Shown: positions 1 to 29,673, numbered from the stretch's first letter. The stretch: DNA of 64,000 nucleotides from Candidatus Gottesmanbacteria bacterium GW2011_GWA2_43_14 (GCA_000999095.1 LCFP01000007.1:5013-69012); one strand, 5' to 3'. Made by a program: numbers and translations. Notes: generated by a model not told the origin, from the letters alone.

Positions 1-1755
1 TCCTTCCGACTGCTGGTCCAGCCTGAGTCAGGCTGGTTGAATTCCACCTGCCGGTATTCATAAAAGATTGATCCTACTTTAGTCCGGCCGACCTTAAGAC
101 CTGCTCCGTCAATTCTGACTTTCCAGCTATTTCCGTCAGCCTCAGGATAAGCATATGTCAATGACCCGCCGATTGTCAGAGTATATTCACGGCTTTCATC
201 CCCGTAGACGAACAAGGTTGGGGAGGAACCGGTTAATCTTAACGGGCAAAAATTAAAATCTTCCCATTCTTCCCGCAGCATTTTTAATTCCCTGACTTCA
301 TCCTGGCTGCCTTTTTCATCAATTACCAAAGAGTCAAATTCAGCTATGACTGCGTTTATCTCAGGCAGCGGCTCAACTGTTGCCGGGATCAGGAACCAGT
401 TGTTGGCGCGTTTTTGGTTCTGATTGTTGATGGTAAATTTTCCCACGTCGCCATAGCCGCTTAAAGTTATGATAGGCGCCAGCTGGCTTTCCGACGGGAC
501 ACATGGTGAAGCATTGGTGACGGTTCCTGCCTGGTCGGGATTAAAAGTGCCCAGTTTCAACGATTCATCATCCAGGGCAGGTGCCTCAGTAACCCCGGCT
601 ACCTCACCGGCAAAAACCTGGCGGTTATTAAGCGCCGGTACAGCCATAATAAAGGTTGTGTTGAATCCGCTTTTAGTCACAGCGTTGCCTTTTAGAACAT
701 ACATCGGCTCTATCATTTTATTGCTTGCCGGATTTTCCAGGTAAGTCAGGATATAATCAGTTACCTCAGCCCGGAGGTTGTCTGCCCTGTTTTCCGGAAA
801 TATCTCCTCCCAGGCGATGTTTTCCGTGTTATCAGGTACAATTATAGACAGGTTGGCCATCCCGGAAGTCATTTGCAGGTAAGCTTCATCGGGATTTATC
901 AGATTTTCCGCTCCATAACTCAATTCCGAATCTATTAATTTAAGATTGGAGGTGATTCTCATACCTTGTCCTCCACCCAGTGCCACGGTGACTGTATTGA
1001 AATCATCAGGTCTCATTCTGCCGTCTTCTCCTGTTGAGGTGTTGACGATTTCCGGCTGTTCCGGTGTCAGGCTGTCAGTCATCCCGGGTTGAAGCTGATT
1101 CAATCTGGTTTCATTGGAAACATTAAGAAGACCTGAAAAATTTAATATCGGCAATCCGGCTTTGACAAAATCGCGATGGCATTCCACAAATATATATCCG
1201 TTTATATCATTTCTGGAGTAGGTGACAGGGCATTCTACTGTTTCATCAATCAAACCTAAGTCAAGCAGGTAGTTTCTGACAAACTCTTTTTCAGAGCCGG
1301 CGCCTCCCGGCAGCGAATAATCACGGTAGGAAACCAGTTCATAATTGCCGCTGTTAGTTTGGAATTTCAGGTAACCTGCGTTTTCAGGATCTTCCGTATT
1401 ATAGAAAATCACCGTATTGCCCTCGCTTTTGTTCTGGTTCAGGTCGAATTTCTGGGCAACAGATGCTAGGTAAGGAATGGAGTAATTTGTTCTGAAATTA
1501 TAGACTTTCACACTGTTAGGAACTGCCGTTCCGCTGTAATTGCCGCTGAGTTCACTGAAAGTCATCACCGGAGATGTCAAACGGGTCTGCTGCCTGCTTG
1601 CTGTGTCCGATTCAGAATCCGTGAATAATTGCTCTGTCATGATGTCGGCGGGGTTTTGTTTCTGTTTAAAGAGGGAGAAAAGGAGAGCGACCAGAAGAAT
1701 TAGTACCAGTGAGAGCAGGATGTATAACTTTTTTTTGGGCAGCTTATCCATCATA
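1..1755 (-). CDS. Large exported or membrane-anchored hypothetical protein. The start is at 1755/1752 (MMDKLPKKKLYILLSLVLILLVALL...) and the 3' end runs past the window edge.
   Basis: Hand translation of the minus strand gives an open frame of more than 580 codons. The N-terminal KKK plus hydrophobic segment is a signal anchor. The ORF track omits it because no stop lies in the window. It abuts the downstream cluster genes. Confidence 0.55.
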
Positions 1756-1815
1756 GAGATTAAAATTACGTAAAATTAATAATTAAATTAAGCGTAAACG
1801 AGGCGGAATAATATG

Positions 1816-4269
1816 TCAATAGTCAGTCAATAAATTCGGGTCAACCGTTATTTGGCTTCCTTCCTTCAGCTTGCCGTCCAGAAGCCTCTTGGCGATATAG
1901 TCTTCCAGAGTTGTTTCAATCGTCCTGCGCATAGCGCGGGCTCCGAATTCCCGGGAATTGCCTGTTGAAGCCAGGTAGTTGACCAGCTCGTCGCTGGGGT
2001 TGACCCGGATGGCTTTTTGGGCAATTCTGGAGTTTAAATTTTCAAGCATCAGTCTGGCTACCTGCCTCAGATGTCCCTGGGACAGAGGCGTAAAAACCAC
2101 AGTCCCGTCAAAACGATTGAGAAATTCAGGGGAAAATATTTTTTCTCTCAAGACGTGATCAACAATTTGATCCTGCAGTTTTTGCGGACTTGCTTCTGCG
2201 GCGACCTGTTCCCGGATATATTCCGATCCGGCATTTGATGTGGCGATGATAATTGTCTGCCGGCAGTCAATTTTTTTGCCGGAGGCATCATGCAGATAAC
2301 CTTCGTCCAGAAGCGTTAAAAAAAGATGCTGGATTTCTTTGGGGGCTTTTTCAATTTCATCGAAAAGAAGCAGGCTGAAGGGGTTAACGCTCAATTTTGT
2401 AGTCAGCTCCCCGGCTTTTTGACCGGCGCTTGAACCTATCAGCCTGGCCATGCCTTCTTCGCCCTGGTACTGGCTCATGTCAAAACGCAGCATTTTATCT
2501 TCCCCTCCGTAATAGACGGAACTTAGGGCTTTAGCCGTTTCCGTCTTGCCGACTCCGGTCGGTCCCAGGAAAAGGAAGGAGCCGATGGGTTTCTCCGAGG
2601 AAGAGACATTCATTCTGGCTCTTCTTAAAGCGGAGGCGATCATCCTGATGGCCATTTGCTGGTTGATTATCCGGCGGTGCAGGTAGTCTTCCAGATTAGC
2701 CAGTTTTTCCTTTTCACCTTCAAGAAGTTTGCCTATGGGAATCTTCAGTTTCTCTGTCAGGTATTTATCGATATCATCGCTGCGGATAAATTTATTACGG
2801 TTAGAGGCGATAATGGCATTCTCCAGCAGTTCTATCGCTTTACCGGGAAAAGGCGTTGCTGTCAGATAACGGTCGGCATCCTCAACGGTTTTTTTAACGG
2901 CCGCAAGCGAAATGACAGTGTTATATCTTCGTTCCAGGACCGGCACAATGGATATTTCCAGTTCCGTGATGACGGTTTTTAAATCAGGGGCCAATAGGAA
3001 AATTTCCTCAAACAGGCCTCCCAGGAGGCTATTTTTTTCGAGGAATTGATGATAATCGTCAGGCGTCGTCAAACCGATTAACCCAATTGAGCTTCTGGCA
3101 AATTTCTCGATGACATCCGTCAGATTTAGCCTGCCTTCGCCTTCGGAGGCATACTTGTCGAAGTCGTCGATAAACAGGATGATATTGCCGGCTTTCTCGG
3201 ATTCCTCATATATTTGCGAAAAAACGGCTTTTATTTCCTGGAGGTTCTTTTTATCCGAGCAAAGTGCGTGCATATCAACTTTCATGATTCTCTTGTGGGA
3301 CAGTTCTTTTTCACTCATGCCAAGGTACAGGTGGCGGGCCAGAGTTTCAACCAGCATATGTCTGGCTATACCGGGAACGCCAATCAGCATGACATTTTTA
3401 TTTTCGCTTTTAAGCAAAGCCCTTTCCATTTTTTTTATTTCCGCATCCCGTCCTAAAAGGAAGGGGAATGGTGTCGGTTCGGCAGTTAAATCATGGGCAT
3501 ATTTATCCAACTCAACTGTATAACCGTACGACCAGTCAATGCCTATCCCCGGCAGGGCGCGTATTCTCTTCTTGTCTTCGAGCAGGGGCCGCAGAGTCAA
3601 TGATTCGAGGCGGCGGTACCAGTTCAGACAGGTGAAGAAATCATCTTTGCTGATTTTATTGGCTGAAATTTCCGGTAAAAAGGAAAGGTTTTCATAAATT
3701 TGATTATAGAGGTTTTCTGCATTATCCGGAGTTGTCATAGGCAAAATGGAGAAAGGAGGCAGTTTGGCGATGATGCTCCCAGGGTCCAGTCCAAGTCTTA
3801 TCAAGCAAAAACGGCCGGTTTGCGACAGGCAGAATTTTTTGAGGTATTGACCGTTTCCCAAGGCTTGCATGATTTCAGCAGTCTCCTCGTTGAAATTTTT
3901 TTTTCTTGAAACGTAAAAAGGCAGGGAAACAAAGGGCAGCAAGAGCCAGCCGATTAAAACCGGTAGGTAAAGAAAAGGCAAAAGCAGCATCATGGTCAGG
4001 CCGGTAAAAATTGCCGTCAGCCGCAGGAAAAAACCCATAAATCTTGACGTCAGATTGAATCCAACGACAGAGGCGTAATTCGACAGCTGGAAACCCCGGC
4101 CTTTAACAGCCCGGATGCGTTTCCAGGGCGCCAACAGGTTGGGCAGATGGTGGGGAATTCCCGAAAAATAGTAGGAAAATAAAACCAGATTGAAGAAATG
4201 GTCCGTGAGGCGGGGCCAAATCCGGGAATAATGCCAGTTGAGAAAGTCTTCCAGATTATTCATTTTCAA
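1816..4269 (-). CDS. Membrane-anchored ClpA/ClpB-like double AAA+ ATPase (817 aa). The first ATPase domain (NBD1) is degenerate and the second (NBD2) is intact.
   Basis: The N-terminal ~270 aa contain several hydrophobic helices (e.g. FFLRLTAIFTGLTMMLLLPFLYLPVLIGWLLLPFVSLPFYV). D1 aligns to ClpB D1, but its Walker A reads GVPGIARH where ClpB has GEPGVGKT, and its Walker B reads ILFIDDFD. D2 is canonical: FLFLGPTGVGKTE, LLFDEIEKA, TSNAGS, and the C-terminal GARAMRRTIE small domain. Confidence 0.8.
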   Translation of the reverse strand: MKMNNLEDFLNWHYSRIWPRLTDHFFNLVLFSYYFSGIPHHLPNLLAPWKRIRAVKGRGFQLSNYASVVGFNLTSRFMGFFLRLTAIFTGLTMMLLLPFLYLPVLIGWLLLPFVSLPFYVSRKKNFNEETAEIMQALGNGQYLKKFCLSQTGRFCLIRLGLDPGSIIAKLPPFSILPMTTPDNAENLYNQIYENLSFLPEISANKISKDDFFTCLNWYRRLESLTLRPLLEDKKRIRALPGIGIDWSYGYTVELDKYAHDLTAEPTPFPFLLGRDAEIKKMERALLKSENKNVMLIGVPGIARHMLVETLARHLYLGMSEKELSHKRIMKVDMHALCSDKKNLQEIKAVFSQIYEESEKAGNIILFIDDFDKYASEGEGRLNLTDVIEKFARSSIGLIGLTTPDDYHQFLEKNSLLGGLFEEIFLLAPDLKTVITELEISIVPVLERRYNTVISLAAVKKTVEDADRYLTATPFPGKAIELLENAIIASNRNKFIRSDDIDKYLTEKLKIPIGKLLEGEKEKLANLEDYLHRRIINQQMAIRMIASALRRARMNVSSSEKPIGSFLFLGPTGVGKTETAKALSSVYYGGEDKMLRFDMSQYQGEEGMARLIGSSAGQKAGELTTKLSVNPFSLLLFDEIEKAPKEIQHLFLTLLDEGYLHDASGKKIDCRQTIIIATSNAGSEYIREQVAAEASPQKLQDQIVDHVLREKIFSPEFLNRFDGTVVFTPLSQGHLRQVARLMLENLNSRIAQKAIRVNPSDELVNYLASTGNSREFGARAMRRTIETTLEDYIAKRLLDGKLKEGSQITVDPNLLTDY

Positions 4270-5189
4270 TAAAAATTACACTTTTCTTTTCTCGGATCGC
4301 AGATGGTTTTTTGTAACCCGGGCACGCGTACCAGATTTGAAATATAGTTAACAAGATTATTGTAACCGATAAGTCCCTTGAAAAAATCTTCTGTCATTTT
4401 GACGAAGGACGTATTGTTTGAGGCAGCATGGGAAAGGACGCATGACAGGTTGAAAACCGGTTCTCCGAAAACGGTTTTGTTGGGGTATTCACAACCGACG
4501 CTTTGCCTCATGCCTGGATTAACCGTCAGACAGCGGTTCAGGCAGAAGCGGTATGTTCCATTATCATTTGAGCGGCATTCAGCATTGTTTTCCATCATAA
4601 AACAATGGGTATATCCCTGAGGACCGGTAAACGTCCCGCTTTCGCAGAGGTCCCGGCAGCCGCCCGGCCCGTTAAGCGGCAAACTGCCGCATAATCCCTG
4701 ACCGCCGCCGATATTGCACCAGCATGAAGGGACTCCGGCTGTATACAGAATGCCGCATCCCCGGGGATTGGTTTTTTTGGTTACCGGTGCCGGCGGAGTT
4801 GGTGTGCGTGTCGCCGGACCGGGTGGCCGGGTCGGGAAAGTACAGGCAAAATCCGGTGACAAATTGCAGGCACCGTTGCGAAGTGCATTGCAGTCCGCTG
4901 TTGCCTGGGGGCTTAAACCGCCGTTGCAGTAATGGTTGATTATTTGCGTGTCTGAACACAAGTTGTGCTTGTAACTGTTGTAGATTGGGCGCAAATCAGT
5001 CCTGTATCGTAGAAGACAATCAACGCATTTGGCAGGAAACTGGGGATTTTGAAAATCAAGGTTACAGTTTTTGTCCGAACCCATAGGAACAGCCGGATAG
5101 GTCGGCAGCGGCGTTTGGGCAGAAGCCTGTTTTGCCGCTAAAATTACGGCTGAGACAAAAATGGAAAAAATAATTTTTATTTTGATCAC
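4266..5189 (-). CDS. Secreted Cys-rich protein (307 aa) with a Pro-rich linker and the conserved C-terminal tag ...VRVPGLQKTICDPRKEKC.
   Basis: It has a Sec signal peptide (MIKIKIIFSIFVSAVILAAKQASAQ), more than 25 Cys, and a PTRPPGPATRTPTPPAP linker. The C-terminal motif is shared with the two upstream paralogs. It overlaps its neighbours by 4 bp. Confidence 0.7.
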   Translation of the reverse strand: MIKIKIIFSIFVSAVILAAKQASAQTPLPTYPAVPMGSDKNCNLDFQNPQFPAKCVDCLLRYRTDLRPIYNSYKHNLCSDTQIINHYCNGGLSPQATADCNALRNGACNLSPDFACTFPTRPPGPATRTPTPPAPVTKKTNPRGCGILYTAGVPSCWCNIGGGQGLCGSLPLNGPGGCRDLCESGTFTGPQGYTHCFMMENNAECRSNDNGTYRFCLNRCLTVNPGMRQSVGCEYPNKTVFGEPVFNLSCVLSHAASNNTSFVKMTEDFFKGLIGYNNLVNYISNLVRVPGLQKTICDPRKEKCNFY

Positions 5190-5191
5190 TC

Positions 5192-6949
5192 TCAGGGAAT
5201 TGCACAGCCGTTAGTGACCTTCGGATCACAGGTGGCTTTTTGCAGTCCGGGTACGCGCTGAATTTGTTCGATTAACAGACTTAATTCAATGGCATCGATG
5301 GTGCCCTGTCGATACTGGTCAATATAGCTGCTGATGACTTCATTGGTTGATTGGCTGACGGAAGCGGTTCCCAGAGGATCAGGAAATTCAGCCGTAATAT
5401 CGACCTTAGCCGGCGGATTTACCTGGCAGACACTGGCCTGGCAGGAAGCCATATAATCAATATTTTCTATGACGACTCCCGCAGGTCCGTAAGCTTTGAC
5501 ATAGACGTCATATTTCCTGTCCGGAAAAAGATTGTTAAAGCGGTAGGGGAAAACTACCCCGCTTTGGATGCCTGCTTTGGGAATTTCTATTTTCCGTAAA
5601 TAGTTATCTCTGACATCATTGATCCAGACATAAACAGAATCAAATTGCGCTTTACTGGTAAAGTTCAGGATGACTTCCCCCGAGATTTCGGAATTAGGAG
5701 GCGTGCCGTAGCGGCACTCATACAAAATGTCAAAAGTATTTGGTGGGGAATAAGGCGAGGTGACATCGACACAGGCCTGGCTGTCATATCTCCAGTATGA
5801 GGCTATCTGGCGGTTGATTGGCTGTCCGGCTACCCGGAAACAGTGGCCGCTTCCGTCGGTTGAGCATTGTCCCTGGGGGTTGATACCGTCGACCGAAAAA
5901 GCCCTTTGGTCAGGATTTAAATTATTGCAGCTGACGTCCGTAAAATAAGAGATGTAGTTGGTATGGTTGCAGATTTCACCGTCGGGAGAATACCAGGCAG
6001 GTTTGGGAAGTGCAATCGGTGTTGCGCCGGGCGGAGGGGTAGAGCTTGGGGTTGGAGTATTTGCGGGTCTGTCAATGGTAAAGCTGACAACACAGGCCGG
6101 CTGCGGCGATGAGAATCCGGTATCATCAAGAATAAAATAACCGTTGACCTGGACTTTTAGAGGAAGTTTGTTCCCCCAGAGTTCATCGGGACGGTTCAGG
6201 TCATCGTAATAAACGGTAAATGTATGGCTGGTTGAGCCTGATTTAGGCACGATGACATTATAATGCTGGCCGCCGAAAATAATGGGTTTGGGGTTGCCGG
6301 GACCGTAGAGATTGTCCCTGTTATAAAAGAAAAGCTGGTAGTTGGTGATGGCGGTCCCTGCCGGGGGCAGACCGCTGATAGTGATTTGCAGGGATTGGCT
6401 GGGACTGAGGATGCCGCCTGAGATTGATGAACTCTGACAGACCGCGGGGCGGTATTCTTCCGTTTCTAAAAAACAGGCACTGTTGGTAGGCGACCAGCTG
6501 CCGCTGTCCTGGGCCATATAAGGCACGATTTGCACTCTTTTCAGTTTGCTTCCTAGAGGCAGATTCTGCTTCAGGTCGGTAATAAAAAGCTCAGCCGCGG
6601 AAACGGTTCTGGTACCCGTAGTTCTTTGGGTAGTGGTGGGATCTTTAAATATCAGCGGATACTGTCCGGCCGGACAATCAGTCGTCGGGATAACCACATC
6701 TCCGCCGACATTGGTACAGACCACCTGGCCGAGCGTCGGATCACCGGGTTCTTTAAAATCAAGATTACGGATCAGAAAATAAAAATTATTGACAGGGATG
6801 TCTGATGTGGACTTAAATGTTACGGTTTCATTGACTTTGAGGACAGCTTTGTCGATAGTTGCTCCCGTACAGGATTGGGCATATGTTTTTCCGGGCAAAA
6901 GATACAGAAAGAAGATACCCAGAAAAAGAACTGATAATATAGTTTTCAT
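5192..6949 (-). CDS. Secreted large protein (585 aa), paralog of the C-terminal part of the 7447-9750 product, ending ...IQRVPGLQKATCDPKVTNGCAIP.
   Basis: The signal peptide is MKTILSVLFLGIFFLYLLPGKTYAQ. Two internal regions align to the 767-aa neighbour (IDKAVLKVNETVTF.../IDKATIGPGESFTV... and ...YDVYVKAYGPAG.../...YELYVKAYDRQG...). A PTPSSTPPPGATP linker is present. Confidence 0.7.
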   Translation of the reverse strand: MKTILSVLFLGIFFLYLLPGKTYAQSCTGATIDKAVLKVNETVTFKSTSDIPVNNFYFLIRNLDFKEPGDPTLGQVVCTNVGGDVVIPTTDCPAGQYPLIFKDPTTTQRTTGTRTVSAAELFITDLKQNLPLGSKLKRVQIVPYMAQDSGSWSPTNSACFLETEEYRPAVCQSSSISGGILSPSQSLQITISGLPPAGTAITNYQLFFYNRDNLYGPGNPKPIIFGGQHYNVIVPKSGSTSHTFTVYYDDLNRPDELWGNKLPLKVQVNGYFILDDTGFSSPQPACVVSFTIDRPANTPTPSSTPPPGATPIALPKPAWYSPDGEICNHTNYISYFTDVSCNNLNPDQRAFSVDGINPQGQCSTDGSGHCFRVAGQPINRQIASYWRYDSQACVDVTSPYSPPNTFDILYECRYGTPPNSEISGEVILNFTSKAQFDSVYVWINDVRDNYLRKIEIPKAGIQSGVVFPYRFNNLFPDRKYDVYVKAYGPAGVVIENIDYMASCQASVCQVNPPAKVDITAEFPDPLGTASVSQSTNEVISSYIDQYRQGTIDAIELSLLIEQIQRVPGLQKATCDPKVTNGCAIP

Positions 6950-6952
6950 ATA

Positions 6953-7450
6953 TTATGGACTGATATCAATTTTGATTTCATGATTGCCGCTGATGAGATT
7001 TTTGCCCTGGGACATCAGCCGGCTTTGCTTTGAATCAAGAGAGATTATGGTAGGTCCGGTATTTTTTTTGGTGATAAAGCGGATAGTCACTGCAGGATTT
7101 TTTTCAGCCGCAAGTGCCGTTAAATGGAAAAGCCCCCGTATTCTTTCGGTTTTCACATCTCCCCAGAGGGACGGACTAGGGTCTACCTTTTCAACATCCA
7201 GATACTTAGGATCATAGGCAAGCCACAAATCAATCTCCTGTATCGGCTTCCGGCTTTCAAATGAGATACTCATTGGAAAAGTGGATTGAGTTTTGACTAT
7301 TTTTGCCGGTGTTTCTATCTTAATTTTTACTCCTATTGGAAGGATCAGCCGGATCGCGGCCAGGAATATAAAGACAGCCACGGCTGCCGTGAGATAGTAA
7401 ATGCGCCGGTTGTTTTTTTTATGGCGGATATTCCGGTTCTTTTTTTTCAT
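6953..7450 (-). CDS. Membrane-anchored cohesin-like domain protein (165 aa).
   Basis: A basic N-terminus is followed by one TM segment (YYLTAAVAVFIFLAAIRLIL). The extracytoplasmic domain carries an AYDPKYLDVEKV motif resembling the cohesin YDP-x-xL-x-V signature. It is a paralog of 10024-10575. Confidence 0.55.
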   Translation of the reverse strand: MKKKNRNIRHKKNNRRIYYLTAAVAVFIFLAAIRLILPIGVKIKIETPAKIVKTQSTFPMSISFESRKPIQEIDLWLAYDPKYLDVEKVDPSPSLWGDVKTERIRGLFHLTALAAEKNPAVTIRFITKKNTGPTIISLDSKQSRLMSQGKNLISGNHEIKIDISP

Positions 7451-9985
7451 GGGAGGTCACATCCTCCGGGAATTTTGGGATCACAAGTGGCTTTCTGCAG
7501 GCCCGGCACTCTTGTTATGCGGTGGATGAAGCGCGAAATTTCCAACGGGTCTGCCTGGTTATTGATCCATCTGTTGATCATGTCGTTAAAACGCTGGTTA
7601 ATTTGAGCGGGAGAGGCGTCAACCAGAGGATCGGGAAAAACCAATTTGAAATTGATGACCCCGTCAGGCATGCTTTGGCAGCTGTAACTGCCGCAGGAAC
7701 CTTCATTTATGACGCCGATATAATCAATGGCAGTACCCTGTCGGTCATAAGCTTTGACATAGAGCTCATACGTCTTGTCGTAGAAGAGGGGGGAAAAATT
7801 AAATCGGAATTTGGAATTGTTTTTAACATCTTCAGCTTTTTGTTCATGGAATGTCAGGTAGTTTTCGGCAGAGATGTCATGGAGGTAGACGATAATATTG
7901 CGGAACGGTTTGGCTCCCTCAAAGCTGACGCTGACTTCTCCCGTTATCCTGCCTTTGGGTTCGCTGGTGAAAGAACAGGTGAATAAGCGGTCAAAAATCG
8001 TAGCAGGAATGTCATCCCTGTCTGTAATCGGGGTGCAATCTTCAGAGCCCGAACGTATCAGATATTTCGGCGTGATTGCTTCATTGACGATGACACCGCC
8101 GGCTTTGTAGCAAAAACCTGTGCCGTCTTCATTGCAGCCGGTTTCTTCTTCACGATCGGATAAAGTGTCGCCTGACAGGTATCCTACCGGACTCAGGCAA
8201 AGTGAATCGTTATAGAGTTTGATAAAGTTCTTGTCTGTGCATTTTAGTCCGTCGGGAGCATACCATTCCAATGGATCGTTCGGATTGCCGACGCAGGTGG
8301 TTCCGTTCCAGCAGGCATTAGGGCCGCAATCACAGCCTGAGGTTAGAGCTTGGGTGCAGTTAATTTTAGGGTCTCCCGCCAGTTCACAACTGTCCACACA
8401 ACCGTTGGGGAAGACTTCCCATTTAAATCCCTGGTTTTCGCAGGCAAATTTTTCCGCATCGCTGCAGACAAGCTGGCATTCATTCTCGATGCATTTCGTT
8501 GAGCAATTTCCTCCAATTCCCGAACAAAAATCAGGGTCTTCGCACTGACCGGCAAGAAACTCTTTATTTTCGACGGTGCATTTACCGGTTTCTTTATCCA
8601 GGGCGCAGCCGCAGTCGAAATCAGTCTGGCAGAACAATTTTTCGGAAGCGGGGGTAGGTGTAATGGTGATATCGGGTTCGGGTGTGGGAACATCATCAGT
8701 TACCGATGACGAAACATGTCCGACACAGCCGATTTCAGCTACGGACAGCTGGCCGCCCGGACTCTGGAAAAAATAAGCATTGATCTGAATTTTTTGAACC
8801 GGCAAATTGCCGTTTCTGGCGTCAAGTTTGCCGAATATTTCCTCGTAGGAAATTGTTCTGCTGCCTGTTGTCCGCATCCCGGCCCAGTCAGGATCCTCGA
8901 ATATCAAATGGTGAGTGCCGGTAGGACAGTTGCCGACGATGCCGGTTACATCGCCGCCCTCGGCCACGCAGACCGATTTGGGATTTCCCGGACCGAAGAG
9001 ATTGTCCATGTTATAGAATTGGTACCAAAAACGGTTGATGGGAGTTTTGGAAAATGAGGTTACCGTAAAAGATTCTCCCGGACCGATGGTAGCCTTGTCT
9101 ATGGAGATACCCTGGCAGAGGTTTGGCCTGTCGGGACCGAGTGCCGATACAGGGGTTGCCGATGGTGCCGGTACTCCCGGATCGCCCGGGTCTTTACCCT
9201 GGCATACACAAATCGGCAAACCGTCCGATCCTTCGCCATCGGCCACACAAGTCCCGCCCGTGCCGCAGCTGGTTCCCTCGTCGTGGTTTTTGCAGTTGTT
9301 GTTCGATTCGGCTGAACAGGAGGTGCCTCCGCCCGGATAGCCGGGATCGCCTGGATCTCCGGGACCGCCGGGACCGCCGGGGTCACCCGGACCTGTAGAA
9401 GGCGCAGTGCAATTGCATATCGGATTCCCGCTGGTATCATTTGATCCGGTTATATTGCAGTTTTTGTCCGTAGCGCAGGCAAAGCCGAGATTTTTGCTTT
9501 TACAGACAGTTTCCGATGAAAGTGAAGAGCATTTCTGTTCACAGCAGGTGGATTGGATTCCGCAGTCTTTGACTCCTACGCTGTAATAGTTAGTATCGCA
9601 GGGAAGTTCCGCCAAAGGTGAACAGTATCCCTGGCAAAGCGGAGCTGTTGGGCAATTATCAGCAATATCGCCGCATTTTAAAATAGAGCCTACATAGCCG
9701 CATTTTCCAGGACAGTTTAAATCGGTTGTGCATGTCTGACCGGCGGACAATATCGCCGCATTTTAAAATAGAGCCTACATAGCCGCATTTTCCAGGACAG
9801 TTTAAATCGGTTGTGCATGTCTGACCGGCGGATGTACAAGAAGTTGAGGTCGCGGCCTGCTTTTGGGGGTTTTGGGGCTCAAGTGCGAGGCGGACAGCGG
9901 CGGCGACACCGACGACCATCGTCACCAGAAGCACCAATTCAATACCGGCAAACCCGGCCTGGCGGAATCTTCTAAATATTTTCAT
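7447..9985 (-). pseudogene. Giant type IV pilin-headed Cys-rich adhesin-like gene, about 830 aa if contiguous. An 85-bp tandem duplication splits it into ORFs 9659-9985 and 7447-9750.
   Basis: The N-terminus MKIFRRFRQAGFAGIELVLLVTMVVGVAAAV is a class III prepilin signal (G|F..E5). The 28-aa segment SAGQTCTTDLNCPGKCGYVGSILKCGDI is encoded twice, by the two repeat copies. The body has EGF-like Cys repeats, a collagen-like GPGDPGGPGGPGDPGDPGYPGGG run, and the C-terminal tag ...ITRVPGLQKATCDPKIPGGCDLP. Confidence 0.6.
9662..9831. repeat. Perfect tandem duplication of 2 x 85 bp (9662-9746 and 9747-9831).
   Basis: I checked base by base that the two 85-bp copies are identical. Because 85 is not a multiple of 3, the duplication shifts the reading frame of the pilin-like gene. 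Confidence 0.9.
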
Positions 9986-10023
9986 TATTTCTGATTTTTT
10001 ACAGTTTCCTAATCAACTGATCC

Positions 10024-10575
10024 CTAAAGAATATTCACGTCCAACTGGTCAATTCGTTTCGGATCGAGAATATTGATGCCGTTGGTGGCCACGATCGTTT
10101 TTGTCCGGTCAAAGTTAATTTCGGTTTTGCCTTTATTTTCGGTGGCCTGGAATACGATTTCAGCTACGGTTTCTTTGCCCTTTGGCAATATAATTTCTTT
10201 GCCGTCAAAGGTGGCCACTCCGGAAACCTTCACATAGCCGCTGCCGCTGACGTTGATAGGGTAATTGGCGAAAAAATTACCGGTTGAAACTGAAGTGACT
10301 TTCAGGTATTTCGGGTCGAATGCCACTACAAAGTCAGCCGCGGCCACTTCGGTTTTACCGGAATCAAGAATCAAGGTAACTTTGAAATCTTCCCCGGCCG
10401 GGATCCGGCTGTTTTCGGCAAGGAGATCCAGTTTGGCTTCCTGTTTGATTTCACCTTCCTTCGGCGCTCTTTTTTGCTGGATGATATAAGCAGCCAGAAG
10501 GCCGATTATAAAAAAAAGTGTAAGGATGAATAATTTGCTGGCAGATTTTCCGGTTGAAACTGGTTTTTCCTCCAT
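10024..10575 (-). CDS. Membrane-anchored cohesin-like domain protein (183 aa), paralog of 6953-7450.
   Basis: It has an N-terminal TM segment (LFILTLFFIIGLLAAYII) and an FVVAFDPKYLKVTSV motif. It is the first gene of the minus-strand cluster. Confidence 0.55.
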   Translation of the reverse strand: MEEKPVSTGKSASKLFILTLFFIIGLLAAYIIQQKRAPKEGEIKQEAKLDLLAENSRIPAGEDFKVTLILDSGKTEVAAADFVVAFDPKYLKVTSVSTGNFFANYPINVSGSGYVKVSGVATFDGKEIILPKGKETVAEIVFQATENKGKTEINFDRTKTIVATNGINILDPKRIDQLDVNIL

Positions 10576-10634: not shown

Positions 10635-11207
10635 ATGATTCTCTCTGATAGGGATATAAAGAAGAATTTGATCACAGGCAAAATTAAAATCAGCCCGCCC
10701 CCGGATCTTACTTTGCAGCTGGGATCATGTTCCGTTGATTTAAGGTTGGGCAAAACATTCCGTATTTTCGAACACAGCAAACAGCCTTATATTGATCCGT
10801 TTAACACCAAATATTCAGCGGACGTGACGAAATTAGTGAATGTAATTGATACGGAACCGTTTATCTTGCATCCCGGTGATTTTGTCCTGGCCACGACAAT
10901 TGAGCATTTTGAGCTTTCTGATGATCTGGTGGCCAGGCTGGAAGGCCGTTCGTCTTTGGGACGTTTGGGGATCGTTGTTCATTCGACAGCCTCGATTTTT
11001 GAGCCGGGCTGGCAGGGACGGGTGGTTATGGAATTGGGCAATCTGGGACGGATGCCGGTAGCCCTTTACCCGGGGATGCGTGTCTGTGCCCTGACTTTCG
11101 AAGAATTATCAAGCCCTGCTGACGTGCCGTACCACAAAAAAAAGGGCGCCAAGTATGTCAATCAGAAGATGCCTGATGCTTCCAAAATCTCAGCCGATAA
11201 AAAGTAA
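10635..11207 (+). CDS. dcd: dCTP deaminase.
   Basis: The product is 190 aa with conserved ...ILHPGDFVLATTIE...GRSSLGRLGI...EPGWQGRVVMEL..., matching full-length Dcd. Confidence 0.85.
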   Translation: MILSDRDIKKNLITGKIKISPPPDLTLQLGSCSVDLRLGKTFRIFEHSKQPYIDPFNTKYSADVTKLVNVIDTEPFILHPGDFVLATTIEHFELSDDLVARLEGRSSLGRLGIVVHSTASIFEPGWQGRVVMELGNLGRMPVALYPGMRVCALTFEELSSPADVPYHKKKGAKYVNQKMPDASKISADKK

Positions 11208-16391: not shown

Positions 16392-16467
16392 TTGACAAAG
16401 CCGGTACATATCAGTAAAAAATATAAAAGGGAATTGCCCCCCAGAGAATCCGGGGGGGATTTTTTTT
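16392..16467 (+). promoter_or_regulatory. Putative sigma70 promoter and a leader hairpin with an 8-T tract, ending 5 nt upstream of the purA ATG.
   Basis: TTGACA at 16392-16397 and an A/T-rich -10 near 16415-16427. The stem CCCCCC (16437-16442) pairs with GGGGGGG (16452-16458) and is followed by TTTTTTTT (16460-16467). Confidence 0.45.
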
Positions 16468-16472
16468 GGCAG

Positions 16473-17717
16473 ATGAATTTATCTAAAACCACGGTCGTGA
16501 TAGGCTCGCAATGGGGTGATGAGGGCAAAGGCAAGATCGTAGATTTCCTGTCGGCCAAATCGGATTTTATCGTCAGGTTTCACGGCGGAAATAATGCCGG
16601 ACATACGGTCGTAAACAGCCTCGGTACTTTCAAAATGCATCTTATTCCGTGCGGCGTCTTTTACCCGGGTACTAAACTGGTTATTACTCACGGAGTAGTC
16701 ATCGATCCGCTGACACTTATCAAAGAAATTAAGACTTTGGAAAAATCTGGCGTTTCCCTGGAAAATAGGCTTTTCATTTCACCCCGCGCCCACATTATTA
16801 TGCCTTACCACCGTTTGCTTGATTCCCTTTATGAAAAAAATAAGGGAAAAAATAAGACCGGTACGACCGGCCGGGGGATAGGGCCTGTTTATGCCGACAA
16901 AGTAAGTTACATGGGTATTCGCCTGGAAGATCTGGTTTCGCCAGCTGTTTTTAAGGAAAAAATTGCCCTCTATCTGCCTATCAAGAACAAAATCATCAAA
17001 GCTCTCGGCGGCAAACCTCTTTCTTTTTCCAAAATATTGAAGGAATATACCCTTTATGCCCGCGCCCTGAAAAAATACGTCACTGAACCGTATTTCGTTC
17101 TTGCGGAGGCAGCCGGAAAAGGCAAGCGTATTCTTTATGAAGGTGCCCACGGAATTCTGCTTGACAATGATTGGGGGACGTACCCTTTTGTGACAGCTTC
17201 TTCAGTCCTGCCGGATATTTCCGGTAAAAGCTCAGTCATCGGCATTGTCAAAGCCTATTCGACAAGAGTCGGTGAAGGGCCGCTGCCTACCGAACAGGCA
17301 AACGGCATCGGCGAGAAATTAAGAAAAATAGGGGATGAGTACGGTTCAACCACGGGACGCCCGCGGCGATGCGGTTGGTTTGACGCCGCTCTGGTCAGGT
17401 TTGCCGCGAGAGTCGGGGGTTTTACCGGAATTGCCTTGACCAAACTTGATGTTCTCTCGGATTTTAAAACCATAAAAGTGTCAGTCGGTTACCGCGGCAA
17501 CGGCAAAAATCAGGGCATTTCGGGTTTGGATTTGAAAAAAGCCAAACCCGTTTACCGGACTTTTAAAGGATGGGGGAAGTCCCTTGATAATATTACTTCA
17601 TACAAAAACCTGCCAACTGAAGCGAAAAAATACATAGAATTTATTGAAAGTTTTGTTCAAGTTCCGGTCAAATACATATCAACCGGGCCATCCAGGTCCG
17701 CCTTAATAAATCGATGA
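16473..17717 (+). CDS. purA: Adenylosuccinate synthetase.
   Basis: GSQWGDEGKGK, GHTV, GIGPVYADK and TTGRPRRCGW. The real start is the ATG at 16473 (MNLSKTTVVIG...). Confidence 0.9.
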   Translation: MNLSKTTVVIGSQWGDEGKGKIVDFLSAKSDFIVRFHGGNNAGHTVVNSLGTFKMHLIPCGVFYPGTKLVITHGVVIDPLTLIKEIKTLEKSGVSLENRLFISPRAHIIMPYHRLLDSLYEKNKGKNKTGTTGRGIGPVYADKVSYMGIRLEDLVSPAVFKEKIALYLPIKNKIIKALGGKPLSFSKILKEYTLYARALKKYVTEPYFVLAEAAGKGKRILYEGAHGILLDNDWGTYPFVTASSVLPDISGKSSVIGIVKAYSTRVGEGPLPTEQANGIGEKLRKIGDEYGSTTGRPRRCGWFDAALVRFAARVGGFTGIALTKLDVLSDFKTIKVSVGYRGNGKNQGISGLDLKKAKPVYRTFKGWGKSLDNITSYKNLPTEAKKYIEFIESFVQVPVKYISTGPSRSALINR

Positions 17718-18799
17718 TCAGAACAATCAGACTGGCATTAACTTATGATGATGTTCTTTTGGTGCCCAAACGTTCTTCTTTAAGGTCGCGCAAAGACGTT
17801 GATACTTCCACTTTTCTGACAAGGGAAATAGAATTGAAAATTCCCGTTGTCTCCGCCAACATGGACACGGTGACGGAAGTGCAGATGGCGGTCTCCATGG
17901 CAACATTGGGGGGCATAGGCTTTATCCACCGTTTTTTAACCGTAAACGAGCAGGCCAACCAGATAGCCAAAGTGAAAAAAGCGAAAGTCAGCGATAAAAA
18001 TTTGCGGGCGACGGTTGGCAAGAACGGTAAACTGGCGGTTGGTGCTGCCGTCGGGGTCAAACCCGATGCCCTTGACCGGGCAAAGGCAGCGATTAGCGCC
18101 GGTTGCGATGCTTTGGTCTTGGATATCGCCCACGCTCATGCTGATTCCGCCCTTGAAATCCTGGCTAAATTGAAAAAAAATTTCCCCAAAATCCCGGTAG
18201 TCGCCGGCAATGTGGCAACAGCCGAGGGCACCCGCGACTTAATTAAAGCCGGGGCTGACTGTATAAAAGTCGGCATTGGTCCCGGATCGATGTGCACCAC
18301 CAGGATTATTGCCGGGGCAGGCATACCGCAACTTACGGCTGTTATGGATTGCAGCAAAGTGGCACGTCCTTTGAAAATTCCGATAATCGCCGACGGCGGC
18401 ATCCGCATTCCGTCTGATCTGTCAAAAGCCATCGGAGCCGGAGCCTCGACTGTCATGATCGGCGGTCTTTTTGCCGGCACGACGGAAAGTCCGGGCATGA
18501 CGGTCAACCGTCAGGGCAAGAAATATAAAATATCCCGCGGCATGGCCTCGGTCGGTGCCAATACAGAGAGGATGGAAATGGAAGAACTGCATGAGTATGT
18601 GGCCGAAGGGGTCGAAGCCTTCGTGCCTTTCAGGGGGGAAGTCGAAGAGGTTGTCTCCCATTTGATCGGAGGTTTAAGGTCGGGCATGAGCTATTCCGGC
18701 GCCAGAAATATCAGGGAATTCTGGAAGAAAGCCGAGTTTATCCGCATAACTCCCGCCGGCCGCCAGGAAAGCCTGCCCCATGACGTGGAATTAATGTAA
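17714..18799 (+). CDS. IMP dehydrogenase / GMP reductase family enzyme without CBS domains (361 aa).
   Basis: Catalytic loop GIGPGSMCTTR and a TIM-barrel. It overlaps purA by 4 bp. Its size fits GuaC or a CBS-less GuaB. Confidence 0.75.
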   Translation: MIRTIRLALTYDDVLLVPKRSSLRSRKDVDTSTFLTREIELKIPVVSANMDTVTEVQMAVSMATLGGIGFIHRFLTVNEQANQIAKVKKAKVSDKNLRATVGKNGKLAVGAAVGVKPDALDRAKAAISAGCDALVLDIAHAHADSALEILAKLKKNFPKIPVVAGNVATAEGTRDLIKAGADCIKVGIGPGSMCTTRIIAGAGIPQLTAVMDCSKVARPLKIPIIADGGIRIPSDLSKAIGAGASTVMIGGLFAGTTESPGMTVNRQGKKYKISRGMASVGANTERMEMEELHEYVAEGVEAFVPFRGEVEEVVSHLIGGLRSGMSYSGARNIREFWKKAEFIRITPAGRQESLPHDVELM

Positions 18800-18819: not shown

Positions 18820-18860
18820 TTGACATATTTAATGTAAATGTTAAAATTTAATGTAAATGA
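18820..18860 (+). promoter_or_regulatory. Promoter with a direct-repeat operator for the vapBC module.
   Basis: TTGACA at 18820-18825 and TAAAAT at 18842-18847. Direct repeats TTTAATGTAAATG at 18828-18840 and 18848-18860 overlap the promoter. Confidence 0.45.
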
Positions 18861-19108
18861 TTCACTACGTTACCATTACTTCCCAGGGACAAATTACCAT
18901 ACCCGCAAAACTCAGACGCAAATTTAATTTCGGGAAAAATAAAAAAGCGATTGTTTCCTATACTGAAAATGGAATTTTGGTTGAACCGGTAAAGGATATC
19001 TTGGAGTTTGAAGGGATCTTTAAGACTGATAAAAAAATTCCTTTTAAAAAAGCCAGGAAGGCATTCGTCGAGTATTTGGCTAGCAGAAGTTCGAGAATTA
19101 GTAAATGA
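18857..19108 (+). CDS. vapB: AbrB/MazE-type antitoxin (VapB-like).
   Basis: VTITSQGQITIPAKLRRKF is a swapped-hairpin barrel motif. It is coupled to the downstream PIN gene through an ATGA overlap. Confidence 0.7.
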   Translation: MIHYVTITSQGQITIPAKLRRKFNFGKNKKAIVSYTENGILVEPVKDILEFEGIFKTDKKIPFKKARKAFVEYLASRSSRISK

Positions 19109-19491
19109 AGCAATATTTGATAGACACGAACTATCTTCTAAGATTTCTGCTATCAGATGTACCTCAACAAACAAAAATCGTCAGACAGTATTTTATACAG
19201 GCAAAACTTGGCGAAACTGAAATAACCATTCCTTATTTGGCAATAATTGAATTGGATTTTAATTTAAGCAAGCTATATAGATTTTCCAAAACGGAAGTCG
19301 TAGAAAAATTATTTACCCTAATTTCAATTCCATATTTAAACTTTGAGAAGAGAGAATTATTGATAAAAGCTATCCCATTATATAGACAGGTAAATTTTGA
19401 CCTTGTTGATATTTTATTCTTCTGTGAAGCCAAATTGACGGGAAAAGAGCTCCTTACTTTTGACCGCAAGTTGAAAAAGCTGAAAGATTAA
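19105..19491 (+). CDS. vapC: PIN-domain toxin (VapC-like).
   Basis: YLIDTNYLLRFLL is the N-terminal PIN motif. The product is 128 aa. Confidence 0.65.
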   Translation: MKQYLIDTNYLLRFLLSDVPQQTKIVRQYFIQAKLGETEITIPYLAIIELDFNLSKLYRFSKTEVVEKLFTLISIPYLNFEKRELLIKAIPLYRQVNFDLVDILFFCEAKLTGKELLTFDRKLKKLKD

Positions 19492-27365: not shown

Positions 27366-27400
27366 AACCTGGGAGGTAGCGCAGATACGCAACCTAGGGG
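27366..27400 (+). repeat. REP-like palindromic element, copy 1.
   Basis: AACCTGGGAGGTAGCGCAGATACGCAACCTAGGGG, located between the convergent genes tsf and the TraD-like gene. Confidence 0.7.
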
Positions 27401-29604: not shown

Positions 29605-29673
29605 GTGGTTTAAGTATAGATTTTCCCTGTGCAAATTAAAAGTTGTATAATCACGCGAATCCGAAGGTCTTAT

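Follow-up and report, generated by a model that had tools for sequence, protein, structure and literature searches.

Two genes of Candidatus Gottesmanbacteria bacterium GW2011_GWA2_43_14, here called cohA and cohB, encode genuine cohesin modules, each with an N-terminal transmembrane (TM) helix and each adjoining genes for secreted proteins that end in a conserved module of about 50 residues (the tail). In the reading we prefer, to which we give a probability of roughly 0.5, the membrane-anchored cohesins would dock the tail and so keep the tailed proteins (the cargo) at the cell surface. The analysed window is a stretch of 64,000 nucleotides, in which the cluster contains the following features:

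10024–10575, minus strand: cohA, 183 aa, type-II-anchored single cohesin; TM helix about residues 11–36, cohesin domain about 45–183
7447–9985, minus strand: pilin-headed Cys-rich giant surface protein (the giant), 817 aa after repair, 56 Cys, C-terminal tail module
9663–9832, no strand: 85-nt perfect tandem duplication (2 × 85 nt; copies 9663–9747 and 9748–9832, 100% identity, spacing 85)
7450–7599, minus strand: tail module of the giant, last 50 aa, NQRFNDMINRWINNQADPLEISRFIHRITRVPGLQKATCDPKIPGGCDLP
6953–7450, minus strand: cohB, 165 aa, divergent cohA paralogue; TM helix about residues 14–35, cohesin-fold domain about 40–165
5192–6949, minus strand: secreted Cys-containing surface protein, 585 aa, Sec signal peptide by eye, ending in a tail module
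5195–5344, minus strand: tail module of the 585-aa protein, NEVISSYIDQYRQGTIDAIELSLLIEQIQRVPGLQKATCDPKVTNGCAIP
4266–5189, minus strand: secreted Cys-rich protein, 307 aa, with WCNGG and NPRGCGILYTAGVPSCWCN motifs, ending in a tail module
4269–4418, minus strand: tail module of the 307-aa protein, NNTSFVKMTEDFFKGLIGYNNLVNYISNLVRVPGLQKTICDPRKEKCNFY
1816–4269, minus strand: ClpB-like AAA+ protein, membrane-embedded, 817 aa, the last gene of the cluster

The original prediction of two ORFs with the same architecture agrees with what we find: both are present on the minus strand, and both consist of an N-terminal TM helix and a β-sandwich of about 125 aa. The AlphaFold2 models show a single long N-terminal helix (residues 11–36 in cohA, 14–35 in cohB) followed by an all-β domain; the cohB model was built from an alignment of cohA relatives and may be biased by it. 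The (A/F)(Y/F)DPKYL-x-V motif noted at the outset has the form AFDPKYLKV in cohA and AYDPKYLDV in cohB, the only two matches in all frames of the window. cohA matches Pfam Cohesin (PF00963) with 40.7 bits (E = 3.4e-10, model positions 8–130 of 139), above the gathering threshold of 24.1 bits, as do its relatives in L010, L003, L005, L016, and L018 (about 26–44 bits; 26.5–43.9). The cohA-family profile has 13 matches at E < 1 among PDB sequences, 11 of them cohesins. The hmmsearch alignment of this profile to 1g1k, 2vn5, and 5g5d places the (F/Y)DPxxLxV motif at the equivalent segment, with the motif strand aligned to FYLGYDASLLEVVSV in 1g1k and IKYDPEVLQAIDP in 5g5d. The nine-stranded β-sandwich is superposable on solved cohesins, which rank above other Ig-like folds. 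The outcomes named in advance as contradicting a cohesin (no cohesin-like fold, or a better match to an unrelated Ig-like family) were looked for and did not occur, and we regard cohesin homology, fold, and TM helix as established.

cohB lies under the Pfam gathering threshold (12.6 bits, E = 0.16), as does its orthologue in L009 (16.4 bits, E = 0.011), and its tie to the cohA family comes from hhalign rather than from the Pfam score. Pairwise BLASTP between cohA and cohB is weak (24% identity, E = 1e-4). Since the cohA-family profile aligns with cohB and its orthologue at a probability of 97.2% (E = 3e-11) over 127 columns, we consider the proposed paralogy solid at the level of sequence. One homologue search returned cohB alone, but the L009 orthologue shows that it is not an orphan. 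Precomputed Pfam annotation of the cohA family already carries the Cohesin label, and therefore the domain itself is discoverable by routine annotation. The suggestion that such a scaffold would be new in a CPR organism does not extend to the domain label; full-text literature searches found no paper describing either a cohA-family cohesin or the tail module.

The cluster opens with cohA, which is oriented divergently to dcd (10635–11207, plus strand). cohA ends 38 nt upstream of the start of the giant gene, and the start of cohB overlaps the stop of the giant gene (ATGA). The two paralogues do bracket a pilin-headed adhesin, as first proposed, but in this assembly the gene is split by the 85-nt duplication into ORFs 9659–9985 and 7447–9750. 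Deletion of one copy restores a single ORF of 817 aa with 56 Cys; the orthologues of the giant are single ORFs of 965–1000 aa. The frameshift stems either from an error of assembly or from a disruption of very recent date. The 585-aa protein and the C-terminal half of the giant are paralogous (BLASTP 34% over 276 aa, E = 3e-43). Gene junctions within the cluster are overlaps or spacings of 2–3 nt, which speaks for tight coupling, and a promoter and terminator scan gave nothing better than shuffled sequence.

The tail was found in the window only at the ends of the 767-, 585-, and 307-aa ORFs, where it reads RVPGLQK(A/T)(T/I)CDP(K/R)..C.. (tail HMM E = 1e-22 for the 585-aa and 6e-22 for the 307-aa protein). 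Its roughly 50 residues comprise two predicted amphipathic helices, whose helical structure we infer, an (R)(V/T)PGLQ turn, and a Cys-x(4-8)-Cys loop. Searched exhaustively with the tail profile (hmmsearch), 1.84 billion representatives gave 59 clusters, two of which are repeat artefacts. In the remaining 57 the match stops no more than about 20 residues from the C-terminus, mostly no more than eight; in most clusters the chain ends 4–14 residues past the Cys loop, with polar residues after the second Cys. One Asn and two Cys are invariant in the alignment, and Ser, Pro, Gly, Gln, and Pro are near-invariant. The bodies that carry the tail are unrelated: a glycoside hydrolase catalytic core (P0057), β-helix/NosD proteins (P0066 and the second cargo of L012), and the Cys-rich giants. 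The tail is a conserved modular C-terminal element. A further profile search for homologues of the tail gave a single protein, the metagenome profile scan used a narrower tail alignment (six loci), and a scan of viral contigs found nothing.

C-terminal sorting domains (sortase LPXTG, PEP-CTERM/exosortase, and the T9SS CTD) resemble this arrangement in combining an export signal, unrelated bodies, and a common C-terminal element that is genomically linked to dedicated envelope components. The tail differs from them in that neither a hydrophobic helix nor a basic cluster comes after its motif, and the gene cluster has no sortase-like or exosortase-like gene. The NCBIfam models of known C-terminal sorting signals did not match the tails at E ≤ 1, and with no TM segment after the motif the tail was rejected as a known sorting signal. 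P0047 was considered as an adaptor with both cohesin and tail (hhalign 1.4%, no Pfam match, a local HMM score of 11.7 bits that includes the TM helix) and is kept as a lead only.

A TM-cohesin gene is located beside tailed genes in 11 distinct loci, heading the cluster in nine and directly following a tailed gene in two (short contigs). Ten loci or locus groups with a Pfam- or HMM-positive TM-cohesin gene were found by the tail alone (L005, L006/7, L009, L010, L012, and L014–L018). Wherever the relevant flank is on the contig, the TM-cohesin gene adjoins genes ending in the tail, whatever the protein body; in L013 a 328-aa TM protein with no cohesin signal precedes the tailed gene, and the contig starts there. 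The cassette, conserved in Gottesmanbacteria and related lineages, runs from one or two TM-cohesin genes through one to four tailed secreted proteins to the membrane-embedded ClpB-like AAA+ protein. A single cohesin is often accompanied by two or three tailed proteins (L001, L005, and L012). cohB is present in some lineages only. The order cohesin, tailed cargo, cohesin, tailed cargo is seen again in L016 and L018, whose paired cohesins arose by separate duplications. In L001, L005, and L008 the gene directly ahead of the AAA+ gene encodes an orthologue of the 307-aa protein, and in L011 this place is taken by a distant relative of the WCNGG type; L018 also carries an orthologue, its 3′ flank ending with the contig.

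This adjacency of TM-cohesin and tailed genes gives strong indirect support to the cohesin/dockerin-like scaffold of the original prediction. We propose that the N-terminal signal-anchor helix would hold cohA and cohB in the cytoplasmic membrane with the β-sandwich on the outer face, and that the C-terminal tail of an exported cargo protein would dock non-covalently onto the cohesin, retaining the cargo at the cell surface. An extracellular position of the cohesin domain is favoured by the K/R-rich N-termini of the cohesins (strongly basic in cohB), by the Pro/Ser/Thr-rich linker between TM helix and domain in L012 and L014–L016, and by the Cys-rich cargo, the cohesins themselves having no Cys. 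Both this topology and the physical contact between tail and cohesin are predicted. The cargo would be Cys-rich adhesin-like proteins in this genome and, in other lineages, also a glycoside-hydrolase-like protein and β-helix enzymes. cohB, as a divergent duplicate, would add a second docking site, possibly with another tail preference. The mode of working would be like that of cellulosomal single-cohesin anchoring proteins, but with a TM anchor and a ligand other than a dockerin. Several observations count against docking: the giant has its own N-terminal membrane or pilin anchor, so that a second, C-terminal tether is not obviously needed; the tail has no detectable relation to dockerins, which limits the analogy to architecture and neighbourhood; a cohesin often has more than one tailed neighbour, so that the stoichiometry is not obvious; the unrelated dcd is kept next to the cluster in most loci as well; and L013 has the TM protein with no cohesin signal noted above. 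Across 11 pairs of a cohesin ectodomain and the tail encoded by the gene that follows, the net charges are anticorrelated (Spearman −0.72, p = 0.013; signs opposed in seven pairs and alike in one), which, as a post hoc comparison with arbitrary windows and lineages that are not independent, gives a weak hint of cohesin–tail pairing.

The 817-aa AAA+ protein contains the Pfam domains AAA_2, ClpB_D2-small, and AAA_lid_9. With 396 bits against the NCBIfam ClpB model TIGR03346 (cut-off 1232), it is, judged by its sequence, ClpB-like and not ClpB. Of its two Walker A motifs, the second (GPTGVGKT) is intact and the first (GVPGIARH) degenerate. The N-terminal 130 or so residues are hydrophobic, have no Pfam match, and carry a family-specific motif, DFLNWHY...YYFSGIPHHLPNLLAPWKR. 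This protein may have a role in the cluster, and its gene bears on an alternative that we judge rather unlikely, though it deserves to be weighed: the cohesins would act on the cargo other than via the tail, perhaps as factors that assemble or hold, on the membrane side, the pilin-like or (K/R)GE(I/L)A-type N-terminal anchors of the large cargo proteins, with the tail serving elsewhere (recognition by the AAA+ protein, sorting or quality control after export, or binding to wall or S-layer). An AAA+ gene of the same type stands immediately after the last tail gene in 12 of the fetched loci, including the distant L011 (a short contig with no cohesin gene), the gene right after the cohesin gene mostly encodes a protein with a special N-terminal anchor, and the lack of kinship between tail and dockerins points the same way. 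AAA+ domains, however, must be cytoplasmic, whereas the tails belong to disulfide-rich proteins exported by Sec and exit the cell last. The cargo that follows cohB (the 585-aa protein) and that of L017 carry ordinary signal peptides in place of special anchors, and in L017, where both cohesin and tailed cargo are present, the last cargo gene is not followed by an AAA+ gene.

It is improbable that the cohesin-fold domains bind a ligand outside the cluster (a polysaccharide, the cell's own wall, or a molecule on the surface of a host or partner cell) and are merely co-expressed with cargo whose tail serves oligomerisation or stability. The domain lies only about 10–30 residues from the membrane, poorly placed to reach past surface proteins of 800–1300 aa. 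The cohesin genes also co-occur strictly with tail genes despite the changing cargo and have been duplicated repeatedly in step with the cargo genes.

That the cohesins are small hypothetical membrane proteins caught by chance in a syntenic block, with no functional relation to the cargo, has very little probability. In its favour, dcd adjoins the cluster and rarA is likewise syntenic in most loci; because the unrelated dcd is also kept beside the cluster, conserved adjacency may persist in this clade without functional coupling. In L017, however, dcd is not next to the cohesin gene and the association of cohesin and tail is retained, so that it is independent of dcd synteny. The cohesin and cargo genes are co-stranded with overlaps or 2–40-nt gaps, and the cargo bodies are swapped while cohesin, tail, and AAA+ gene stay.

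The three C-terminal tags of the original prediction are real, but they are not dockerins. Pfam Dockerin (PF00404) and EF-hand models had no match at E ≤ 10 in 36 tails, PF00404 had none at E ≤ 1 in the three tagged window proteins, and the Ca2+-loop pattern D-x-[DN]-x-[DN]-G is absent from all frames of the window (regex). No dockerin-bearing partner for the cohesins was found in the window by regex or Pfam. hhalign of the tail profile with a dockerin profile (four PDB dockerin sequences plus consensus) gave 0.25% (E = 0.24, eight columns), and against the PDB the tail profile gave only neuroserpin noise (E about 0.4). In the tail alignment, a single stretch resembles a helix-turn-helix and has W/Y where a ligand would be expected; the invariant Cys pair comes in addition. 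A dockerin or EF-hand tail is rejected on the basis of these searches, and because there is neither a Pfam match nor a Ca2+ loop and hhalign reaches only 0.25%, "dockerin-like" can, from the sequences, only mean a functional analogue. A very divergent but canonical cohesin–dockerin pair with the tail as a degenerate single-repeat dockerin appears close to refuted at this level, since the GTIDAIELSLLIEQI segment, which by eye resembles one dockerin/EF-hand loop plus F-helix and is the sole stretch aligned by hhalign (kG.I.al with dG.i.s.D), is a single repeat with W/Y or nothing at the Ca2+-ligand positions and lies beside a Cys pair that dockerins do not have.

Among known systems, docking by cohA and cohB would be closest to the cellulosomal single-cohesin anchors (OlpA and OlpC of Clostridium thermocellum, ScaE of Ruminococcus flavefaciens). 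These are anchored by SLH repeats or a sortase signal, whereas cohA and cohB have the N-terminal TM helix, with no SLH or other Pfam domain besides Cohesin and no LPXTG. Further differences are that the ligand presumed here is not a dockerin, that the organism belongs to the CPR, that the cargo of this genome consists of adhesin-like proteins and not of enzymes, and that the cassette ends in a membrane AAA+ gene, which cellulosome loci do not have. In the non-cellulosomal pairs (the NagH/NagJ/NanJ toxin complexes of Clostridium perfringens and the Archaeoglobus fulgidus cohesin 2xdh), the cohesins are within large multidomain enzymes and the partners are canonical Ca2+-binding dockerins; here, the cohesin is stand-alone and TM-anchored, with no dockerin detectable.

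Cohesin-based assembly is familiar from cellulosomes, from toxin complexes of clostridia, and from a few archaea. For CPR bacteria, which are believed to live attached to other cells, little has been established about how their often giant surface proteins are anchored and displayed. Should the tail dock on the cohesin, cohesin-based assembly would extend to CPR, with a concrete anchoring mechanism for their surface proteins. The tail would be a new cohesin-binding module apart from dockerins, maybe usable as an orthogonal protein-assembly pair, and a sequence tag for surface cargo in metagenomes (adhesins, the glycoside-hydrolase-like protein, and β-helix enzymes). More tentatively, and as one joint reading that we hold to be possible but doubtful, cohesins, tailed cargo, and membrane AAA+ protein might together constitute a system of Microgenomates (CPR) for surface display or secretion that has so far gone unrecognised. 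Its helix–PGLQ–disulfide-loop module of about 50 residues might be the first class of non-dockerin cohesin ligands; tiny, probably host-dependent cells might mount interchangeable adhesins and polysaccharide-active enzymes on a minimal cellulosome-like apparatus; and the ClpB-like ATPase might power one of the steps, for instance extraction of the pilin-like anchor at the N-terminus or transfer to the cohesin.

The N-terminus of the giant, RQAG|FAGIELVLLV, looks like a class III (prepilin) signal. The head, RQAG|FAGIELVLLVTMVVG with E at +5, is the same in L001, L004, L018, P0025, and P0061; the orthologues in L002 and L003 do not have the prepilin-like motif, and other lineages bear a different head, (K/R)GE(I/L)A..., at the equivalent position. 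Pfam and NCBIfam pilin models (N_methyl/TIGR02532 type) did not match the giant at E ≤ 1, and none of the 20 largest other ORFs scanned in the window is a pilus machinery gene; in these respects, and in the different head found in other lineages, the giant is unlike the modular type IV pilins with bulky C-terminal domains that occur in Gram-positive and CPR type IV pili. It resembles them in its hydrophobic G|FAGIE-type head and large adhesin-like body.

The window belongs to a Candidatus Gottesmanbacteria genome (CPR, Microgenomates). Six genes run head to tail on its minus strand (10575 to 1816), and dcd is divergent from this cluster, which is led by cohA:

10635-11207, divergent from cohA: dcd
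10575-10024 (-): cohA, 183 aa, identical to hypothetical protein UV73_C0007G0014
between cohA and cohB (-): the giant, a pilin-headed Cys-rich protein
7450-6953 (-): cohB, 165 aa, identical to hypothetical protein UV73_C0007G0011
following cohB (-): 585-aa protein
4266-5189 (-): 307-aa protein
1816-4269 (-): ClpB-like AAA+ protein, 817 aa (AAA_2, AAA_lid_9, ClpB_D2-small)

The stop of the giant overlaps the start of cohB (ATGA), 3 nt separate cohB from the 585-aa gene and 2 nt the latter from the 307-aa gene, which itself overlaps the AAA+ gene. A scan for consensus promoters and terminators performed no better than on shuffled sequence. The giant, the 585-aa and the 307-aa proteins contain 56, 16 and 22 cysteines, respectively; cohA and cohB contain none. 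The original prediction that two membrane-anchored proteins bracket an adhesin is correct as to the flanking genes, but the gene they enclose is not intact: a perfect 85-nt tandem duplication (9663-9747 and 9748-9832) frameshifts the giant into ORFs of 108 and 767 aa. Deletion of one copy in silico gives a single ORF of 817 aa, and the orthologues are single ORFs of 965-1000 aa. The duplication reflects either an artefact of assembly or a disruption of very recent date. The giant orthologue in the related locus L005 is likewise split, in a poly-Gly (GGN) run. The 307-aa protein carries two Cys-rich motifs, xxWCNGGxSxxAxxDC and NPRGCGILYTAGVPSCWCN, both of which recur in its orthologues; the WCNGG motif is also found inside giant tailed proteins of other lineages (positions outside the window: L011 1-645 and L018 8586-8999).

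cohA and cohB are membrane-anchored cohesins. In the predicted structures, a single long N-terminal helix (residues 11-36 in cohA, 14-35 in cohB) leads into an all-beta domain. The two sequences resemble each other weakly in a direct comparison (24%, E 1e-4), but a profile built from 12 cohA relatives matches cohB and its one orthologue over 127 columns (hhalign, 97.2% probability, E 3e-11), and the two are therefore paralogues of shared architecture, as proposed. cohA scores 40.7 bits against Pfam Cohesin (gathering score 24.1) and its relatives 26-44 bits, whereas cohB reaches only 12.6 bits, under the gathering score, and its orthologue 16.4 bits. Membership in the cohesin superfamily thus follows from the Pfam threshold for cohA, but for cohB only from profile and fold. 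Public data already carry a precomputed Pfam label for the cohA family. Searching PDB sequences with the family profile gave 13 matches at E < 1, 11 of them cohesins. The (A/F)(Y/F)DPKYL motif, found in the window only in the cohA and cohB ORFs, aligns with the equivalent strand of the CipC and SdbA cohesins, in agreement with its earlier reading as a cohesin strand. The outcome that would have refuted the cohesin reading, absence of a cohesin fold or a best match in another Ig-like family, thus did not occur, with the caveat that the cohB alignment was made of cohA relatives.

The cargo proteins share a C-terminal module, the tail. The three tails of the window align over ~55 residues, and a tail profile searched against 1.84 billion representative proteins recovered 59 clusters (E ≤ 1e-3). 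Two of these (P0017, P0045) are internal repeats. The tail is strictly C-terminal: in the remaining 57, the match stops no more than about 20 residues short of the C-terminus, mostly no more than 8, in proteins of 48-1029 aa. It is also modular, as the bodies that bear it are unrelated: adhesin-like proteins of the window type, a glycoside-hydrolase catalytic core (P0057), right-handed beta-helix/NosD folds (P0066 and the second cargo of L012) and Cys-rich giants, often with a Pro/Thr-rich linker before the tail. Across 36 sequences (consensus ..N..F...I..W..G.I.A..MS.FI..L.RVPGLQK..CDP..GGC), an Asn and two Cys never vary, and a Ser, Pro-Gly, Gln and Pro are nearly invariant. The hydrophobic spacing suggests two amphipathic helices with a Gly turn between them, a PGLQ turn and a disulfide-closed loop. 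No relative of the tail was found in the PDB and no match among NCBIfam sorting signals, and the tail has no TM segment. Many tailed cargo of other lineages start with (K/R)GE(I/L)A(T/L)xLT(L/I)(I/V)S..G, which may represent a separate type of signal or anchor (L012 3679-8727, L014 2432-4684, L015 2295-4295, L016 3205-10442; proteins P0032, P0037-P0040, P0059, P0063-P0069); the window giant and its orthologues start instead with a prepilin-like G|FAGIEL head.

Related loci were fetched in two independent ways, via the cohesin (four Gottesmanbacteria loci, L001-L004) and via the tail (L005 onward), and their cohesin and tail ORFs were confirmed by local HMM searches.

Gene order in related loci
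L001: dcd / cohA, 979-aa pilin-headed tailed giant, 592-aa tailed, 311-aa tailed, AAA+; without cohB
L002-L004: cohesin, directly followed by Cys-rich giant, contig end
L005, L006/7: as L001
L009: giant tail, cohB orthologue, start of 585-like gene, as in the window
L010: tailed gene, cohesin
L012: dcd / cohesin, GH-like tailed cargo, beta-helix tailed cargo, AAA+
L014: dcd / cohesin, one tailed cargo, AAA+
L015: dcd / cohesin, tailed cargo, AAA+
L016: dcd / cohesin, tailed cargo, cohesin, tailed cargo, two more genes, AAA+
L017: cohesin, two genes, tailed cargo; second tailed protein on opposite strand; without dcd
L018: rarA, dcd / cohesin, pilin-headed giant, cohesin, tailed cargo, tailed cargo

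The TM-cohesin gene adjoins tail genes in all 11 distinct loci with the relevant side present; in nine it is the first gene of the cluster, and in L009 and L010 it comes immediately after a tailed gene. In the sole unclear case, L013, the contig opens with a 328-aa TM protein without cohesin signal. The lineages are well separated (identity to the window 32-64% for AAA+ proteins, 36-72% for cohesins), and cohesin, tail and AAA+ protein persist while the cargo bodies change. L016 and L018 also have cargo bracketed by cohesins. A neighbour-joining tree shows the L018 cohesins as sisters, but not those of L016, and groups cohB and L009 as the most divergent clade; duplication of the cohesin gene beside cargo genes has therefore happened at least three times. 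In L017, an 890-aa FG-GAP-type protein (904-3576, -), divergent from the cohesin gene, ends in a tail (HMM E 1e-11), so that tailed genes are not confined to the strand or operon of the cohesin.

The AAA+ protein of the window lies far under the ClpB equivalog cut-off, and its first Walker A is degenerate. Its hydrophobic N-terminal ~130 residues contain the motif D(Y/F)LxWHY...YYFSIPxHLxxLxxPWKR. Each of the 12 loci with the 3' side present (window, L001, L005-L008, L011-L016) encodes exactly one such protein, invariably right behind the final gene of the cluster, and we regard it as belonging to the cassette.

The best-supported reading is that the cohesins would act as membrane-proximal receptors and the tail as their putative ligand; exported cargo would be caught at its C-terminus and retained on the cell. 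The cohesin domains probably face outward, given their basic N-termini (very strongly so in cohB), the Pro/Ser/Thr linkers in L012 and L014-L016 and the Cys-rich cargo. In a post hoc comparison, the net charges of the cohesin ectodomain and of the next gene's tail show a negative correlation (Spearman -0.72, p 0.013, n = 11; cohA -2 with giant +2, cohB +5 with 585-aa -2), a weak hint of pairing because the windows are arbitrary and the lineages related. In the main rival reading, the tail would be used by the AAA+ machine or in a different sorting step, and the cohesins would handle cargo via some other part. Against capture, a single cohesin is often confronted with several tailed proteins, the giants possess an N-terminal anchor of their own, and dcd is also syntenic with the cluster, so neighbourhood alone can mislead. 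That the tail is itself a dockerin is contradicted by every criterion tested: Pfam Dockerin and EF-hand match neither the window proteins nor, at E ≤ 10, any of the 36 tails, hhalign against real dockerins gives 0.25%, and the Ca2+-loop pattern is absent from every frame of the window. Of the cohesin/dockerin-like display scaffold originally predicted, the cohesins are real but the tags are not dockerins; a scaffold is plausible on strong neighbourhood evidence, and its partner would be a new module. In P0047 (264 aa, on a 1.6-kb Logan contig), one chain contains a TM helix, a beta-rich domain of ~150 aa and a tail; the domain matches the local cohesin HMM weakly (11.7 bits, TM helix included) and has no Pfam match, and the protein might be an adaptor with both cohesin and tail.

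In functional terms, capture of this kind would be closest to the cellulosomal anchoring proteins with a single cohesin (OlpA, OlpC, ScaE) and to the cohesin-dockerin pairs that Clostridium perfringens and Archaeoglobus have outside cellulosomes; Peer et al. 2009 (reference 42 in PMC10066038) surveyed non-cellulosomal cohesins. A full-text literature search on cohesin or dockerin in CPR, Microgenomates or Patescibacteria yielded no description of such an arrangement.

Elsewhere in the window, a 767-aa protein with TrwB/VirD4-type coupling-protein and HerA/DUF87 ATPase domains (27394-29697, -) lies among housekeeping genes. Two adenylosuccinate-synthetase-like genes (16392-17717, +, and 19516-20949, -; by eye from translations) and two IMPDH/GMP-reductase-type genes (17714-18799, +, by eye; 23718-25262, +, Pfam IMPDH and CBS) fall within 9 kb, an unusual duplication for a reduced genome. 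An overlapping pair of 83 and 128 aa (18857-19491, +) resembles, by eye, an AbrB/SpoVT-type antitoxin and a PIN-domain toxin; L003 (183-569) likewise encodes a homologue of the 128-aa protein.
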